Shown: positions 711 to 7,977 of the stretch, piece after piece
Layout: each line of letters begins with the position of its first letter
Position numbering within the stretch: the stretch's first letter is position 1
Source: a virus
Lineage: Duplodnaviria > Heunggongvirae > Uroviricota > Caudoviricetes
Direction: 5' to 3' (one strand)
Length of the DNA stretch: 7,977 nucleotides
IMG/VR virus record: IMGVR_UViG_2545824714_000009
Notes under the pieces: generated by a model
Told to the model about the DNA's origin: nothing
Databases searched by the model: none
What the model saw: the letters and a program-made list of their open reading frames with translations, nothing else
Position numbers and translations under genes: made by a program

Positions 711-1535
711 TCAGGCGGTGAAAGTACCAATAAAGGTTTCTACTTTGCTGTCCTTGAATTTCTCAACAAGCAGATCACGAAATTCGTTAGCCATTTCTTC
801 CTGCACCGCCTCCAGCTGAATAATGCGCAGAACCAGTACCGGACGATCGCCAGTGATAATGCTGAGGCGTAATTTAAACGGACGTTCTTTCAGACCTTCA
901 AACGGAATGCATTTAAATTCAAATGCCACTGGCATAATGTCTTTGGTCTTCGCTTCGACAGACTCCATCAGGGAGCGTTTGCCGCTGAAGTCATTATCTT
1001 CAAAATCAGCGGTCTGGTTTGCTTCAATCGTGATTTTACGGACCGCCGCAGCCGCTTTTGTTGCCTGAATGGTGTCACCATTAGCATCAAAGCCCACAAG
1101 GTAGTCGGCCCAGTCTTCAATCCATTCTGCCAGTGATTTCTGGGAGTTACGCTCGCCATTAACAGACAACAGAGCAGAGAACGGTGCTGTCTTTTTCAGT
1201 TTGAGAGTGGCGGTGTTATCTGCGTGACCTGGTTCATCAATAGTACCCAGGTTAAGCACACTGACGGCTCGCATATTATCAGCATCGATAAAGCAGCGGG
1301 TGCCTTCATCTGCAAGATCTTTAGAATAACGGGTAAAGTCATCGATGCTGGCAGTGGAAAGCGCACCACGGAAACGGAAGCGATTTAAATTAAATTTTTC
1401 CAGATCATGAATGCGGAAATTCTCAGGCAATGCCACAGCATCGGCACCAATCTTACTGATAATTTCATTAACACCCTGAGCAGAAATAAGGGCATGGATT
1501 TGATTAATTGCGGTTGTGTCTAAGTTCTGAGACAT
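711..1535 (-). CDS. yfdQ: YfdQ-like prophage protein of unknown function (DUF2303-type), 274 aa
   Basis: Long minus-strand ORF with GAGG 7 nt upstream of the ATG at 1535 and protein-like composition throughout. Length and position (between yfdP-like and yfdR-like genes) match the CPS-53 yfdP-yfdQ-yfdR arrangement as I recall it. Confidence 0.8.
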
Positions 1536-1600: not shown

Positions 1601-1963
1601 TTAATGACCTGCTGCGCGGAGTTTTCCGTCAGGTTCACCGGCAAGAGTCAGTAATTGTCCCTGGTCTTCCTGCAGAATAGTCAGGCGACCACCGCGATTG
1701 ACATACATCGGCGTTTCGGTGGTGTCTTCTTCGGAAATTTTCCCGCGGTTAGTCGGGCGAACATATGAGAGTTTGTGTTTGATTTTCACACGGTTCTCAT
1801 CAAATGGTTCGATTTCCAGGTTGAGTGAGACCTTACCTTTGGTTTTCGTGTTCATCACACCGGAAGCGACTTCACTGAGAACTGCGCCGATTTTGGTTTC
1901 AAATACGCCGCCGTCCAGCTCCCCGATAAATGCCTGTACATCAGTACTGCGTTCGCTAGCCAT
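1601..1963 (-). CDS. yfdP: YfdP-like small prophage protein, 120 aa, unknown function
   Basis: Minus-strand ORF. The ATG at 1963 is preceded by GAGGAG with a 7-nt spacer (two further in-frame ATGs lie 18 and 21 nt upstream). The 226-aa ORF in the track (to 2281) is an in-frame extension into GC-rich non-coding sequence (Arg/Cys/Pro-rich translation). Confidence 0.6.
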   Translation of the reverse strand: MASERSTDVQAFIGELDGGVFETKIGAVLSEVASGVMNTKTKGKVSLNLEIEPFDENRVKIKHKLSYVRPTNRGKISEEDTTETPMYVNRGGRLTILQEDQGQLLTLAGEPDGKLRAAGH

Positions 1964-2011
1964 TTTGCTGCTCCTCATCATATCGACCCTGCAAGGCCGA
2001 TTAGTTTCTCC

Positions 2012-2100
2012 ACAAAACAGAGAAGAACACCTGCGGTGGCAGCCGCCCGGATGGATTGGGTTATGAGCCCGTCGTCCGGTGATGCTCTTCTCTGTTTTGT
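2012..2100. repeat. Perfect 15-bp inverted repeat ACAAAACAGAGAAGA / TCTTCTCTGTTTTGT flanking a 59-bp GC-rich spacer
   Basis: Read directly: 2012-2026 is the exact reverse complement of 2086-2100. It sits about 50 nt upstream of the yfdP-like start on the transcribed (minus) strand, so it would form a long stem in the leader RNA. Confidence 0.7.
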
Positions 2101-2145
2101 AAAAAGGACGGTACCAGCCGGAAGCAAGGGTACAAACTGGTACCG
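2101..2145 (-). terminator. Candidate intrinsic terminator/attenuator within the leftward operon leader
   Basis: On the minus strand, CGGUACCAG (2145-2137) pairs with CUGGUACCG (2117-2109) as a 9-bp stem around a 19-nt loop, followed by UCC and U5 (complement of the A-run 2101-2105). The loop is large for a canonical terminator. Confidence 0.4.
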
Positions 2146-2400
2146 CCAGGACTACACACAGCATAAAGTTGTGGTGCCGGGTGCCTCCCGGTGCCTGGCG
2201 AAGGTTGCACACCAGACGGGTGGGTATCCACAGAAGGTCGACTGTCAGCCTCAACCTTAACCCGCGTGCGCTGAGCCGCATTCACCACAACGCTAAGGAT
2301 TCTCTTTGGTTGAAAATACTTAGCTGTTATGTGCCTGTCTTTTCACCACTTCAGGCTCGGTGGTATCCTTTTAAGCCCGTATACATAAAAGGAAAATCAA

Positions 2401-2646
2401 ATGACTTTTGATGAAAAAGAACTTGATAATGCAATTAATAAAATCATCGTAACGTCGCTCTTTTCCTGTCTCAGCGACACTCAGCAGAAACAGTTCTACG
2501 AATCGGCTTTCAACATGATCGAGCGTTGTTGTTTCTGCGATGCCGACGAGTTACCTGAAAAAATCAGGAAACAGTTGGCTGATGCTCTTCGAGTGCGACT
2601 TTCTGACCAATTTTCTGAAATGTGCTCTCCGAATTTGGACAAATAG
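2401..2646 (+). CDS. Hypothetical small protein (81 aa), oriented against the leftward early operon; possible moron
   Basis: ATG at 2401 preceded by AGGA with an 8-nt spacer; protein-like composition (MTFDEKELDNAINKII...). No family recognised and no clear sigma-70 promoter found upstream. Confidence 0.5.
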   Translation: MTFDEKELDNAINKIIVTSLFSCLSDTQQKQFYESAFNMIERCCFCDADELPEKIRKQLADALRVRLSDQFSEMCSPNLDK

Positions 2647-2839
2647 AAAAAGGCCATTTCCATTCAGGGTCTGATGGAAATACTTCAGCCTGTTCCAAAG
2701 CACGGCGTAAAGAGAACACAACTCCAGCCATAATCTGATGTTTCCCATTGGTCCAGCTATCGCCGCTCTGATCTACAGGGGCGGCTATGTCGTATGACCA
2801 AACGACTTCACAGTTATTGTTTAAAATCTGGACTTTCAT
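2564..2839 (-). CDS. Hypothetical small acidic protein (91 aa), first gene downstream of the putative PL/OL region
   Basis: Minus-strand ORF. The ATG at 2839 is preceded by AGGTG with a 6-nt spacer (an alternative ATG at 2860 has a weaker RBS). The N-terminal part looks protein-like (MKVQILNNNCEVVWSYDIAAPVDQSGDSW...). The 3' 83 nt overlap the convergent plus-strand ORF, so the true C-terminus is uncertain. Not Arg-rich, so not N-like. Confidence 0.45.
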   Translation of the reverse strand: MKVQILNNNCEVVWSYDIAAPVDQSGDSWTNGKHQIMAGVVFSLRRALEQAEVFPSDPEWKWPFSICPNSESTFQKIGQKVALEEHQPTVS

Positions 2840-3046
2840 TTCATACACCTGCTTTAACATGAGTGCCTAGTGGCACAACATGACTCAACGAATCATCCTG
2901 GACTTCATATGCCCCAGGCGGCTACTTCGTGGGCGTCCTGCCTGTTCGTTTTTGACATTTACTGACTGCTTACGACACATGCACCGTGTTGCAACCAGAT
3001 TTTGTTGTAATCCTGTAGTTGGTCTGGAACAAAAGATAAAATTAAA

Positions 3047-3083
3047 TTGCGAGACATGCAAGTGATATTTGCGAGATATGCAA
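3047..3083. promoter_or_regulatory. Putative OL operator pair (two 15-bp near-palindromic sites) with the likely PL promoter
   Basis: TTGCGAGACATGCAA (3047-3061) and TTGCGAGATATGCAA (3069-3083), 22 bp centre to centre, share the TTGCG-N5-(A/T)GCAA architecture with the site at 3851-3865 between cI and cro. They lie just beyond the cI terminator, where OL/PL sits in lambdoid phages. Confidence 0.5.
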
Positions 3084-3096
3084 ATTTATAGGTAAT

Positions 3097-3117
3097 AAAA
3101 AGCCACCTTTCGGTGGC
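3097..3117 (-). terminator. Intrinsic terminator downstream of the repressor gene
   Basis: Minus-strand RNA GCCACC-GAAA-GGUGGC (6-bp GC stem, GNRA tetraloop; 3117-3102) followed by UUUUUAUU (3101-3094), 21 nt after the cI stop. Confidence 0.65.
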
Positions 3118-3137
3118 CGATGGATGGGATATTGAGG

Positions 3138-3830
3138 TTAATTATGTCTCTTAAGGGTTTGCGACTGACTGATTAAGACCTTTCCAAAGACCATGAATCG
3201 GTGTTCGTTTTCGCTAGTAATTCCCCATTCACGGTAAATCTGGTTATCAGAAATCACCAGCAGTTTGTCAGGAATCATTTGAAGTCTTTTAACGTATATT
3301 TTGTCATCAAAACCAAAGACATATATACCATCACCATCAAACTGATTGATGCTGACATCAACGAAGATGAGATCTCCGGGCTCAATGGTTGGACACATAC
3401 TGTCCCCACGAACGTTGATAACTTTGATGTGATTGGCTGGTCGTCCGCCGAACATTGATACAGCATTATCAGTTCTGTATTCGATGGCATGAATCACATC
3501 AATGACATCACCGCCCTGGATAAGGCCATTTCCCGCACTGGCACTGATATCCAGCATTTCAATACGGAACACATCCTTCACCTGCGCAACATCCTCATTA
3601 TTACTGTTTTTATATACAGTATTACTTTTGTGGGCAGAGGTAAAGAGATCAGCAATATCAACACCTAAGCTCTTGGCAATATTACTCAGTGTTTGTTCGG
3701 TAAATTGTTTTTGCTTACCCGTTTCTAAGCGCGAGATGTTCGCCGCATCTACTCCTATCGCTTCAGCGAGATCGGCGATTTTCATGTTCTTCGCTTGGCG
3801 AAGTTGTCTGACTCGGTTTCCTATGTTCAT
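3138..3830 (-). CDS. cI: CI-like prophage repressor: N-terminal XRE-type HTH plus C-terminal S24 (LexA-like) autopeptidase domain
   Basis: 230-aa ORF. N-terminus RVRQLRQAKNMKIADLAEAIGVDAANISRLETGKQ is an XRE-type HTH; there is an Ala-Gly candidate cleavage site (SASAGNG), a catalytic Ser in GDSM and a Lys in YVKRL. It is divergent from a Cro-like gene. No SD upstream; the -10/-35 spacing suggests a leaderless mRNA. Confidence 0.9.
   Translation of the reverse strand: MNIGNRVRQLRQAKNMKIADLAEAIGVDAANISRLETGKQKQFTEQTLSNIAKSLGVDIADLFTSAHKSNTVYKNSNNEDVAQVKDVFRIEMLDISASAGNGLIQGGDVIDVIHAIEYRTDNAVSMFGGRPANHIKVINVRGDSMCPTIEPGDLIFVDVSINQFDGDGIYVFGFDDKIYVKRLQMIPDKLLVISDNQIYREWGITSENEHRFMVFGKVLISQSQTLKRHN
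3602..3621. promoter_or_regulatory. Near-consensus LexA (SOS) box located inside the cI coding sequence
   Basis: TACTGTTTTTATATACAGTA matches the E. coli LexA box consensus TACTGTATATATATACAGTA at 18 of 20 positions, with intact CTGT-N8-ACAG. It is the only CTGT-N8-ACAG in the window and encodes TVYKNS in the CI inter-domain linker. Confidence 0.45.
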
Positions 3831-5076: not shown

Positions 5077-6018
5077 ATGAGCACTAAATTAACCGGCTAT
5101 GTATGGGATGGTTGCGCAGCGTCAGGCATGAAATTATCCAGCGTGGCAATTATGGCCCGCCTGGCTGATTTCAGTAATGACGAAGGTGTGTGCTGGCCAT
5201 CAATTGAAACCATTGCCCGTCAGATTGGCGCGGGGATGAGTACCGTCAGAACGGCTATCGCACGGCTGGAAGCAGAAGGCTGGTTAACGCGTAAGGCGCG
5301 TCGCCAGGGTAACCGCAATGCGTCGAATGTTTATCAGCTTAACGTTGCGAAGCTTCAGGCAGCGGCATTTTCTCAACTGTCAGATTCTGACCCGTCAAAA
5401 TCTGACGCATCAAAATCTGACCCGTCAAAATTTGATGCGTCGAAATCTGGCAAAAAAGCGGGTTTTCACCCGTCAGAATCTGGCGGGGATCCGTCAGTAA
5501 AATCAAAACATGATCCGTCAGATAAAAAAACTTCTCGTCCGGACGCTTCGCAACCGGACACGCAGACGGCTGAACAGGAGTTTTTAACTCGCCATCCTGA
5601 TGCGGTTGTATTCAGCCCTAAAAAGCGCCAGTGGGGAACGCAGGATGATTTGACCTGCGCACAGTGGCTCTGGAAAAAAATCATCGCCCTGTACGAGCAG
5701 GCCGCCGAATGTGACGGCGAGGTGGTTCGTCCCAAAGAACCGAACTGGACAGCCTGGGCAAACGAAATTCGCCTGATGTGTGTGCAGGATGGTCGTACTC
5801 ATAAACAAATCTGCGAGATGTACAGCCGCGTCAGTCGCGATCCGTTCTGGTGCCGTAACGTGCTCAGCCCGTCGAAGCTGCGGGAAAAATGGGATGAGCT
5901 TTCCCTGCGCTTATCGCCGTCCGTCAGCACGTACACCGAAAAACGCGAAGACCCGTACTTCAAAGCCAGTTACGACAACGTGGACTACAGCCAGATCCCG
6001 GCAGGATTCAGGGGGTGA
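5077..6018 (+). CDS. Phage replication initiator: N-terminal winged-HTH domain, internal repeat region, DnaT-like C-terminal domain
   Basis: 313-aa ORF with GAGG 7 nt upstream. N-terminus (…WPSIETIARQIGAGMSTVRTAIARLEAEGWL) is HTH-like. The C-terminus ends …DYSQIPAGFRG, resembling the C-terminal end of E. coli DnaT as I recall it (…SQIPPGFRG). An iteron array lies inside the gene, as in lambda O. Confidence 0.85.
   Translation: MSTKLTGYVWDGCAASGMKLSSVAIMARLADFSNDEGVCWPSIETIARQIGAGMSTVRTAIARLEAEGWLTRKARRQGNRNASNVYQLNVAKLQAAAFSQLSDSDPSKSDASKSDPSKFDASKSGKKAGFHPSESGGDPSVKSKHDPSDKKTSRPDASQPDTQTAEQEFLTRHPDAVVFSPKKRQWGTQDDLTCAQWLWKKIIALYEQAAECDGEVVRPKEPNWTAWANEIRLMCVQDGRTHKQICEMYSRVSRDPFWCRNVLSPSKLREKWDELSLRLSPSVSTYTEKREDPYFKASYDNVDYSQIPAGFRG
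5386..5530. repeat. Iteron array plus A-rich tract inside the replication gene: candidate origin of replication
   Basis: 15-bp periodic units TCTGACCCGTCAAAA / TCTGACGCATCAAAA / TCTGACCCGTCAAAA / TTTGATGCGTCGAAA (5386-5445), with further CCGTCAG cores at 5470, 5491 and 5515, followed by GATAAAAAAAC (5521-5531). The coding-level equivalent is a DPSKS/DASKS pentapeptide repeat. Confidence 0.65.
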
Positions 6019-7162: not shown

Positions 7163-7485
7163 CGACGTTAACTCAATGCCAGCAGCAGGTGCTGGATATG
7201 CTGATTTCTTATCAGAAAGAACGTGGCTTCCCGCCAACCAATCAGGAGGTGGCAACCATGCTGGGATACCGTTCGGTGAATGCAGCGGTGGAGCATCTTC
7301 GCGCACTGGAGAAAAAAGGCGTCATCACGATAAAGCGTGGCGTGGCCCGGGGGATAACGCTTCATACCGCGGTGAAGGACGACGACAGCGAGGCGGTCGG
7401 GATTATCCGCGCACTGCTTGCCGGTGAGGAAAACGCAAGGCTGCGTGCAACCCACTGGTTACATGAGAGGGACCTGAAAGTATGA
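7159..7485 (+). CDS. LexA N-terminal DNA-binding-domain homolog lacking the S24 autocleavage domain (108 aa)
   Basis: ATGA overlap with the Dam stop; AGGGAG 8 nt upstream. LTQCQQQVLDMLISYQKERGFPPTNQEVATMLGYRSVNAAVEHLRALEKKGVITIKRGVARGITL aligns closely with E. coli LexA residues ~5-70 ([65 protein letters not shown]), including the recognition-helix SxNAAxEHL. The following ~40 aa have no Ser/Lys peptidase motifs. Confidence 0.8.
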   Translation: MTTLTQCQQQVLDMLISYQKERGFPPTNQEVATMLGYRSVNAAVEHLRALEKKGVITIKRGVARGITLHTAVKDDDSEAVGIIRALLAGEENARLRATHWLHERDLKV

Positions 7486-7763
7486 AGCTGATCCTGCCTT
7501 TTCCGCCCAGCGTGAACACGTACTGGCGACACCCCAACAAAGGGGCGTTTGCTGGTAAGAGCCTGATAAGCGCGGCGGGGCGAAAATTCCAGAGCGCGGC
7601 GTGCGCAGCAATAGTTGAGCAGTTACGTCGTCTGCCGAAACCAACGTCGGCACCTGCTTCAGTGGAGATCGTGTTGTTTCCTCCGGATAGACGGGATGGA
7701 AAACCGCCGCCATCGCCTGAACTGGGAAATGAGCCGGGACAGGTGTTTGCGGCTTGGCAGTAA
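7482..7763 (+). pseudogene. rusA: RusA-like Holliday-junction resolvase, N-terminal ~72 aa only; catalytic DxD region missing
   Basis: ATGA overlap with the upstream stop. LPFPPSVNTYWRH…VEIVLFPPDRR matches the RusA N-terminus (LPWPPSNNRYYRH…IRIECHMPDRRRRDLDN), but after PDRRD the translation becomes GKPPPSPELGNEPGQVFAAWQ, lacking the catalytic Asp residues. This is consistent with an IS junction near 7698. Confidence 0.6.
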
Positions 7764-7977
7764 CCGGCTCATTTAAACCGTCTTGTCTGTTTCCTCCGGC
7801 TCTACAAAAATAATGTCCATCATTTTTAATGGACACTATCGTATGAAACACCGGACCTGGATCACTGAAGCTTTACGTCTTCACTTTGAAGAACATTTAC
7901 CCCGGGTTGTGGCCGGGCGTCGCCTGGGTGTACCAAAATCAACAGTTTGTAGTATGTTCGTGCGCTTTCGGAGAGCT
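7698..7977 (+). mobile_element. Left end of a second insertion sequence (probably IS21-family, distinct from the one at the window start); boundary approximate
   Basis: Placed where the RusA homology stops (~7698) through the start of a transposase-like ORF at 7843. CCGGCTC is repeated at 7764-7770 and 7795-7801. No confident terminal repeat identified. Confidence 0.35.
7843..7977 (+). CDS. Transposase N-terminus (HTH), probably IstA of an IS21-family element; 3' end outside the window
   Basis: ATG at 7843, open to the window end: MKHRTWITEALRLHFEEHLPRVVAGRRLGVPKSTVCSMFVRFRRA. The pattern resembles IstA N-termini of the IS1326/IS408 group as I recall them. Not in the ORF track because no stop falls inside the window. 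Confidence 0.45.
   Translation, partial: MKHRTWITEALRLHFEEHLPRVVAGRRLGVPKSTVCSMFVRFRRA

Follow-up and report, generated by a model that had tools for sequence, protein, structure and literature searches.

A structured RNA region with an STnc100-class domain and a seed shared with RprA in the early-left operon of SfV-type prophages

Processing of the small RNA (sRNA) DicF is dependent on RNase III, as described in the older dicF literature. The processed, active form of another sRNA, RprA, consists of its last 47 nucleotides (nt) (PMC9262595), and RprA nt 60-73 lie at the start of that form. RprA nt 60-97, together with the GCUG of this sRNA, pair with site I of csgD and with ydaM/dgcM, as demonstrated with compensatory mutations, and full repression of csgD by RprA requires site II besides site I (PMC3465796). 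Among RNAs of a third kind, STnc100/PasD, canonical STnc100 copies are expressed (11 in EDL933, one verified by northern blotting), and PasD RNAs are bound by Hfq (PMC5331693; bioRxiv 10.64898/2026.05.13.724894). In the present study, positions 1964-2400 of a DNA stretch of 7,977 nt (hereafter, the window) from the Caudoviricetes record IMGVR_UViG_2545824714_000009 of IMG/VR were analysed. On its minus strand, this region carries a pseudoknotted domain of the STnc100/PasD class, a seed identical to that of RprA directly before a terminator, and a long covarying hairpin (Table 1). The locus belongs with the known kinds STnc100/PasD, DicF and RprA and is not a new category.

The locus (2012-2324, minus strand) forms part of the leftward early (PL) transcription unit in a lambdoid prophage of the SfV/SfII type. 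All 437 nt of 1964-2400 were 100% identical to Shigella phage SfV (U82619.2, 24617-25053), and many Escherichia coli chromosomes, such as that of strain ECONIH4, showed the same complete identity over this region. A match to the region was found in 2785 of 5426 complete E. coli genomes, and in 1814 of them the match covered at least 80% of it. The original prediction, made from the sequence of the window alone, had described 1964-2400 as a GC-rich, structured, non-coding leader within the leftward early operon without a convincing open reading frame (ORF). This description was borne out by folding, gene order and coding tests. The GC content was 0.56-0.58 across 2001-2300 vs 0.36-0.48 in the flanks; no ORF matched Pfam, remained open in homologues or showed codon periodicity; and the 437 nt folded better than shuffled sequences on both strands, with the stronger effect on the minus strand (z -5.4, compared with z -3.2 on the plus strand). 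The extent of the leader held for 1964-2324, a GC-rich non-coding segment with strong structure on the minus strand, but not for 2325-2400, which comprises the promoter and 5' untranslated region (5'UTR) of a rightward 81-aa gene. It is almost certain that the region represents a non-coding structured RNA. This was one of the roles suggested by the original prediction, and it agreed with the presence of an STnc100 homologue, of covarying helices with a pseudoknot, and of a seed and terminator related to RprA and DicF. The prediction had overlooked the 9-base pair (bp) closing stem (2168-2176/2283-2291), the pseudoknot (2252-2258/2201-2207), the strand-specific modules and the promoter at the right edge.

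In a permissive cmscan search, the STnc100 model (RF02076) was matched over its full length by 2098-2313 (minus strand) with 39.5 bits and E 9.3e-7, below the gathering threshold of 47 bits; such a covariance-model search had been proposed as a check of the original prediction. Nearly all family members had the domain closed by UGGUG/CACCA, with covarying outer pairs. An invariant 22-mer, CACCGGGAGGCACCCGGCACCA, located at 2172-2193 (minus strand), was found exactly in more than 120 IMG/VR viral contigs that formed 25 sequence clusters. The UGCG/CGCA type of helix P2 was also present in ST64B, phiES15, the Qin prophage of K-12 and contigs L011 and L059, whereas the STnc100 copies of late operons had CCCCU/AGGGG in its place (CCCCU-nnGCGG-AGGGG). 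The 10-bp tandem repeat reported earlier exists literally at 2177-2186/2187-2196, but it in fact represents the arms and loop of a single hairpin on the minus strand, CCGGG-AGGCA-CCCGG, designated P5. P5 also occurred as compensatory variants that retained the AGGCA loop, namely, CCUGG/CCAGG in the Qin prophage and, in other phages, GGUGG/CCACC. A stem of 5-9 bp was found at the P4 position in 23 of the 24 cluster representatives, mostly with unlike sequences, a few of these automatic calls being doubtful. ST64B and phiES15 also had a hairpin at the position of P0, with a completely different sequence.

The pseudoknot was recognised by the complementarity of AAGGUUG with CAACCUU in the P4 loop. 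Across 24 clusters, the mean complementarity was 7.06 for the strands of the same element vs 5.15 for cross-partners (permutation p < 1/5000), and in phiES15, the pairing was doubly compensated (AAGGCUG/CAGCCUU). An earlier test of low power, in which the loop was compared with the shuffled whole upstream region and G-U pairs were allowed, gave 4 of 24 clusters at p <= 0.05. The MAFFT alignment of the family was out of structural register in P4. As a guess, this is a 5' domain that stabilises the RNA or binds a factor.

Comparison with the described STnc100/PasD RNAs revealed the same UGGUG...CACCA closing stem, the same 22-mer, a hypervariable penultimate hairpin, and a 3' single-stranded spacer followed by a terminator. 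The copy in the window differed in its score below the gathering threshold, in its UGCG/CGCA P2, in the additional hairpin P0 and in the RprA-like 3' seed. In addition, the Rfam structure of STnc100 is nested and lacks a pseudoknot, whereas the domain in the window contains one. The genomic setting was also different. The canonical STnc100 copies (contigs L002-L121, e.g., L008, L006, L023 and L045) were located between Q antiterminator genes (PF03589, PF06530) and holin/lysozyme genes, a few nt after a strong promoter of the TTGACA...TAAATT type and usually followed by a terminator, i.e., where the leader of the late operon (a PR'-tR' type transcript) would be expected. The copy in the window is part of the early-left operon, where it is flanked by orf33 and yfdP, and has no consensus promoter of its own. 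The copies of the enterohaemorrhagic E. coli type were flanked by a methylase-like ORF upstream and an ORF of ~620 aa downstream.

The seed of the window RNA was identified by comparison with the RprA sequence given in PMC5606850 and PMC7311995, and the seed string was recognised in RprA by full-text search. It was unpaired in the centroid fold of the seed-terminator module. Its predicted pairing with the csgD leader (UACUACACACAGCAG) had an energy of -23.7 kcal/mol, compared with -24.6 for RprA and ~-16 for shuffled sequences (p 0.01). The seed was conserved in SfV, ST64B, phiNP and phiES15 despite the different terminators of these four phages. A seed scan yielded more than 120 viral contigs in 65 clusters, some of which were unrelated matches inside coding sequence; in most clusters, the seed and a terminator hairpin were found below diverse upstream domains. 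In a sample selected by the apex of the long hairpin, and thus independent of the seed, 36 of 80 unique upstream regions carried the seed, 30 of them exactly, and the others carried different seeds at the same position. Conservation of the seed positions was ~0.99 vs 0.63-0.77 for the flanks, a comparison that is partly circular. Other phage copies matched RprA at 31/31 and 41/45 nt, terminator included, and one phage copy scored 53.7 bits (E 5e-6) on the RprA model of Rfam.

The window RNA thus shares with RprA the 14-nt seed, the position of this seed directly 5' of a terminator hairpin and the predicted duplex with csgD site I. It differs in being phage-borne and part of a PL operon, in having another terminator, and in lacking the 5' hairpins, the anti-site II and the rpoS-pairing region of RprA. 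The rprA promoter is reported to be strongly controlled by the Rcs phosphorelay (PMC9262595), whereas the copy in the window shows no such setting. No description of a phage RprA-like sRNA was found in the full-text literature searched, and as far as the searchable literature shows, both the RprA-seed module and the pseudoknot are undescribed. PasB and HnrS were considered as possible identities of the seed module and were rejected, since these two RNAs are distinct from it and map to late or structural regions. Sequences very similar to the 3' half of RprA were noticed in phage contigs (L255 at 3221-3325, L254, L252 and many of L232-L316), and several of them directly follow the stop codon of an ORF, similar to sRNAs derived from 3'UTRs. 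There is also an apparent resemblance of RprA nt 30-50 (GCAUGGAAAUCCCCUGAGUG) to the 5' end of canonical STnc100 (GCAUGGUGAAUCCCCCUGAGCGG), in the same linear order as the match of the 3' seed. RprA might be an internally deleted descendant of an STnc100-type phage element.

The terminator-like hairpin that had been predicted for the leftward transcript was present, with arms at 2109-2117/2137-2145 that can be extended to 13 bp and with UUUUU next on the minus strand. A simple terminator scan missed 2101-2147 because its loop limit was 8 nt. The terminator stem, GGCGGUACCAGUUU, resembles that of DicF.

The dicF locus of the Qin prophage occupies an equivalent place on the phage map: like the region in the window, it is a non-coding stretch of an operon leading away from the repressor gene, with the sRNA embedded and not free-standing. 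The terminator stems were similar (GGCGGUA.CAGUUU), and in both loci an STnc100-like domain of the same P2 subtype adjoined. In Qin, this domain directly followed dicF, scored 34.4 bits (E 2e-5) and ended at the start codon of dicB. It is unannotated, fills the dicF-dicB spacer (2433-2642 of contig L318) and has the compensated P5 hairpin CCUGG-AGGCA-CCAGG. On the upstream side of dicF in Qin, the structured region resembled a domain found before an RprA-type seed in a different phage. The order of the modules was different: in SfV, the domain is 5' of the seed and terminator, whereas in Qin, it is 3' of dicF. Furthermore, the seed in the window is unrelated to that of DicF, and the downstream gene is yfdP and not dicB. 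Break-points of recombination between phages were found at module borders, at ~2148 and at CACCACAAC. With an STnc100-like domain beside dicF in reversed order, the SfV region corresponds, as judged from these comparisons, to the dicF locus in position and in modules, with domain, seed and terminator recombined.

The long hairpin downstream of the terminator contains the 15-bp perfect inverted repeat of the original prediction, which formed the outer part of arms at 2012-2036/2076-2100. Folded alone, 2012-2100 gave -45.5 kcal/mol (z -7.3), which was reached by 0 of 200 shuffled sequences. More than 120 viral contigs, which formed 34 clusters, contained the hairpin, and it always started directly after the U-run of a terminator. 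The compensatory changes that had been proposed as a check on this stem in homologous prophages were observed: in 18 diverse copies, 94.3% of the cells were paired and 9 pairs were changed on both sides, a level of covariation reached by none of 500 shuffles, with slid controls at ~40%. At one place in the stem, 14 of 18 homologues kept a non-pairing position (~2090/2022 in the window, where the copy has G-C); this conserved mismatch may matter for nuclease recognition. The length of an RNase III substrate, approximately two turns of uninterrupted double-stranded RNA, is reached by the 20-bp stem, and the RNase III processing suggested in the original prediction fits this covarying hairpin and the RNase III-dependent processing of DicF. 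The match of the apex to initiator tRNA-fMet covers three G-C pairs and the loop CUCAUAA, and the likeness is limited to 14 nt of the anticodon arm, with no tRNA or tmRNA found in the region by ARAGORN or Rfam. The apex was nearly invariant in the hairpin family, partly because the pattern used for contig retrieval contained it. VapC/MvpT of Shigella and Salmonella cleaves this arm of tRNA-fMet. It is conceivable that the apex serves as a decoy, as a processing signal or in translation control.

Similar to the RNase III site of the lambda N leader and to put of HK022, the hairpin provides a stem of at least 20 bp between the early promoter and the first downstream gene, and as in the setting of HK022 put, a phage that lacks N has to transcribe past its terminators. 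However, a plain RNase III site has no need for a conserved apex, whereas the apex of this hairpin is conserved and resembles tRNA-fMet, which suggests something more specific than an RNase III site. In positions 24000-34000 of HK022, which should include its PL region, motif and BLAST searches found no similarity to the window RNA, with nothing better than 10 nt. Homologues of the small hairpin located between the long hairpin and yfdP had different stem sequences and a (U/G)GCAG loop.

From the anatomy, the homologies and the covariation, which were established by sequence comparison, we infer the following mechanism. After induction or infection, the PL transcript would undergo termination at 2101 and/or processing by RNase E or RNase III, in the manner of DicF and RprA. 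The Hfq-type sRNA released in this way would measure either ~65 nt, if it consists of seed and terminator as processed RprA does, or ~215 nt, if the 5' domain remains attached. It would pair via the RprA seed with targets of RprA such as site I of the csgD leader and dgcM. By doing so, the phage would copy part of the host Rcs/RprA signal, and curli and biofilm formation would decrease. Polymerase passing the terminator would continue into yfdP-yfdQ-yfdR, and on this read-through mRNA, the long hairpin would be a processing or translational-control element of yfdP. It is moderately probable that the PL transcript yields an Hfq-type sRNA with the RprA seed that acts by this complete mechanism.

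Several points weigh against it. No sigma-70-like promoter was matched on the minus strand near the element in a promoter scan, so the element would be silent in a repressed lysogen. The likeness of the window to RprA is confined to the 14-nt seed: the RprA covariance model (RF00034) gave no match up to E 10 on 2090-2180 or on 1800-3200, and the phage RNA has no anti-site II. The predicted pairing with dgcM was no better than that of shuffled sequences (p ~0.1). The U-run of the terminator is just 5 nt long. The match to the DicF model (RF00039) was insignificant, with 15.7 bits (E 2.7 on 1.4 kb and E 0.17 on 91 nt; threshold, 48), compared with 76.7 bits for true dicF. At gathering thresholds, Rfam had no match in the region. 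Finally, the role proposed for the pseudoknotted domain is a guess, and expression and Hfq binding are documented for the canonical STnc100 copies and PasD only, which represent another subtype.

Other explanations of the region place its function in cis. According to one of them, which was also among the roles suggested by the original prediction, the termination signals (2101-2147 and perhaps the long hairpin) form an attenuator that gates yfdP and the downstream early-left genes; processive antitermination would be needed, and the short RNA would be a by-product. A hairpin with a U-run is located directly upstream of yfdP, no N-like gene lies between cI and yfdP in these phages, a covarying RNA element is present just downstream of PL (2889-2947), and put-type antitermination has been the subject of speculation for the ST64B/LLS group (PMC12315714). 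Because the terminator appears real by sequence, the downstream genes would require read-through, which would support attenuation as a secondary role, and attenuation is compatible with the release of an sRNA. However, it leaves unexplained the invariance of the RprA seed across many terminators and upstream domains, the swapping of seeds and the 120-nt pseudoknotted domain, and as the explanation of the locus, it is rather unlikely. A related proposal is that the domain is a riboswitch-like aptamer that senses a ligand or factor and controls the adjacent terminator. Such a function would fit the complexity of its fold, in which the junction nucleotides are invariant, the stems vary but covary and a pseudoknot is formed. 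It would also fit the placement of the canonical copies, which lie between Q and the holin gene with a promoter directly upstream and a terminator downstream. In SfV, the P4 3' strand CGCCAGG can also pair alternatively with CCUGGCG of the terminator 5' arm (7 bp), but ST64B and phiES15 did not share this alternative pairing. The spacer and terminator that follow the domain are free to vary, and in some copies the next 110 nt hold no terminator. In Qin, the domain runs directly up to the dicB start without an intervening terminator, and no ligand candidate is known. Since there is no conserved expression platform, the aptamer reading is weak, and we regard it as improbable.

It was also considered whether the inverted repeats act as DNA, either as a site of protein binding or recombination or as the remnant of an integration site in a tRNA-fMet gene. 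Both the 14-nt identity to tRNA-fMet and the break-points at the module borders could be read in this way. However, the G-U pairs, the U-run present on the minus strand only, the stronger folding of this strand and the pseudoknot are features of RNA, and neither ARAGORN nor Rfam found a tRNA, which makes a DNA site very improbable. The idea that the region is a decayed protein-coding gene was raised by database annotation: PGAP calls a pseudogene ("frameshifted hypothetical protein") at 1978-2288 (minus strand), and two ORFs match the PHROG families phrog_3651 and phrog_33599. Since PHROG families are built from predicted ORFs, they can arise over conserved non-coding DNA. The ORFs of the region had no Pfam match. 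A recoverable frame in homologues had been named beforehand as the result that would speak against a non-coding leader; this was tested, and no open frame was conserved across SfV, ST64B, phiNP, mEp460 and phiES15. The variable columns lacked 3-nt periodicity (33/27/27, p 0.66; 15/20/15, p 0.61), the gaps in the homologue alignment were of 1, 2 and 7 nt and thus not multiples of three, and the substitutions were instead compensatory in RNA helices. A decayed gene is accordingly scarcely credible, and the PGAP, PHROG and hypothetical-protein calls are ORF-calling artefacts over conserved DNA for non-coding RNA. Public protein calls over 1978-2288 (minus strand) and 2036-2260 (plus strand) are also found as hypothetical proteins in mEp460, cdtI and SfII/SfIV.

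Table 1. Positions of the RNA modules and of the neighbouring features in the window
Feature	Position	Strand	Remarks
cI-type repressor gene	3138-3830	-	Minus-strand gene order
Operators and PL	~3040-3090	-	Minus-strand gene order
PL-proximal structured element	2889-2947	-	...CAGGCAGGACGCCCACGAAGUAGCCGCC, hairpin, then AUGAUUCG; ~60 nt, ~10-15 nt downstream of PL-type promoters
orf33 (phrog_3195)	2564-2860	-	Between PL and the RNA locus
81-aa gene	2401-2646	+	phrog_3311, E 1e-55; unannotated
Promoter-like block (TTCACC, 16 nt, TGgTATCCT) and 5'UTR of the 81-aa gene	2342-2400	+	Promoter assigned by reading of the sequence
P0 hairpin	2292-2324	-	Directly 5' of the pseudoknotted domain; -10.4 kcal/mol, z -5.9
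STnc100/PasD-class domain, P1-P5 and pseudoknot	2168-2291	-	cmscan, RF02076; 124 nt
P1	2283-2291/2168-2176	-	GUUGUGGUG pairs with CACCACAAC; 9-bp perfect inverted repeat
P2 hairpin	2267-2280	-	UGCG-GCUCAG-CGCA; early-left-operon subtype
Pseudoknot	2252-2258/2201-2207	-	AAGGUUG with CAACCUU in the P4 loop; complementarity
P4 hairpin	2193-2217	-	GUCUGGUG / CGCCAGGC; loop holds the 3' strand of the pseudoknot
P5 hairpin	2177-2191	-	CCGGG-AGGCA-CCCGG; the "tandem repeat" of the original prediction
Seed	2150-2163	-	UGCUGUGUGUAGUC; 14/14 identity with nt 60-73 of RprA; immediately before the terminator
Intrinsic terminator	2101-2147	-	13-bp hairpin 2106-2147 and U-run UUUUU 2101-2105; fold of the seed-terminator module (2101-2167), -20.7 kcal/mol, z -3.1
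Long hairpin	2012-2100	-	20-bp stem 2012-2031/2081-2100, three-way apex; covariation
Apex of the long hairpin	2058-2071	-	CGGGCUCAUAACCC; 14/14 identical to the anticodon stem-loop of initiator tRNA-fMet (K-12 metY)
Conserved sequence	2004-2011	-	GGAGAAAC; immediately 3' of the long hairpin; conserved in its family
Small hairpin, UGCA loop	1984-1999	-	Upstream of the yfdP ribosome-binding site; -10.4 kcal/mol, z -3.7
yfdP Shine-Dalgarno sequence, GAGGAG	1971-1976	-	yfdP is the first gene downstream of the RNA modules
yfdP-like gene, start 1963	1601-1963	-	phrog_204, E 1e-49; yfdP in RefSeq, orf32 in SfV
yfdQ	711-1535	-	After yfdP; yfdR is further along the leftward unit

The structured element proximal to PL was found in 45 phage records (Escherichia, Shigella, Salmonella, Yersinia, Klebsiella and Pectobacterium), in none of which it was annotated as a feature of its own. 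In an RNAalifold analysis of 15 copies, 7 of the 15 predicted pairs had a compensatory change. No similarity of this element to HK022 was detected. The element is a candidate for a put-like antiterminator RNA of phages without N, and a better one than the long hairpin.

The promoter-like block of the rightward 81-aa gene recurred before the same gene family in other phages and was 95% conserved in Klebsiella phages. Its part at 2332-2369 holds a conserved hairpin, ACCAC...GTGGT, which is 95% identical in these phages. The 81-aa gene and orf33 overlap convergently by 83 nt, and inside orf33, there is a hairpin at 2656-2681 with a minus-strand T-run at 2641-2651.

The window as a whole is a mosaic: 1964-2400 is 100% identical to SfV, whereas 2880-2960 is 100% identical to SfII and only 97% identical to SfV. 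Judged by eye from translations, the prophage segment is interrupted by mobile elements at both ends. At the left end (1-330), the end of an IstB-like ORF (1-285) is followed by a truncated yfdR-like ORF (329-610); at the right end (7700-7977), a RusA-like ORF (7482-7763) seems to end abnormally, and a transposase-like ORF begins at ~7843. Direct repeats of the type TCTGACCCGTCAAAATCTGACGCATCAAAA at 5390-5460 (plus strand), within a gene for a replication-initiator-like protein of 313 aa, look like origin iterons. A piece of iterons of this type is retained in CPS-53 of K-12, fused upstream of yfdP. CPS-53 could not serve as a source of data on the RNA region, which is deleted there with just the final ~35 nt before yfdP left.

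Taken together, these features admit a broader and doubtful, although genuinely possible, interpretation: in the N-less phages of the SfV/ST64B/mEp460 group, the early-left operon would be an array of control elements made of RNA only, composed of the put-like element, cassettes, the RprA mimic and a tRNA-like hairpin, with the corollary that RprA and DicF descend from such cassettes. The cassettes of this array may be shuffled combinations of a structured domain, a swappable seed and a terminator. The RprA-mimic cassette, present in ~1/3 of complete E. coli genomes, may reprogramme the csgD/dgcM network of curli and cyclic di-GMP on induction, and the last part of the array may be a hairpin with a mimic of the initiator-tRNA anticodon arm.

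Provided that the RNA is produced and functional, a copy of the seed of a core envelope-stress sRNA is encoded by a prophage region that has a match in approximately half of complete E. coli genomes, is carried nearly whole by approximately one third of them, and is currently annotated as a hypothetical protein or pseudogene. This would provide the phage with a direct handle on the control of curli and biofilm formation through csgD and dgcM. It would also be an overlooked player in RprA genetics, because deletions of rprA leave the phage copy in place. The widespread STnc100/PasD RNAs share a conserved pseudoknotted fold, which is testable in a model strain because the dicF-dicB spacer of K-12 contains a fold of this class. 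The shuffling of domain, seed and terminator modules is indicated as a route by which the sRNAs of phages diversify.

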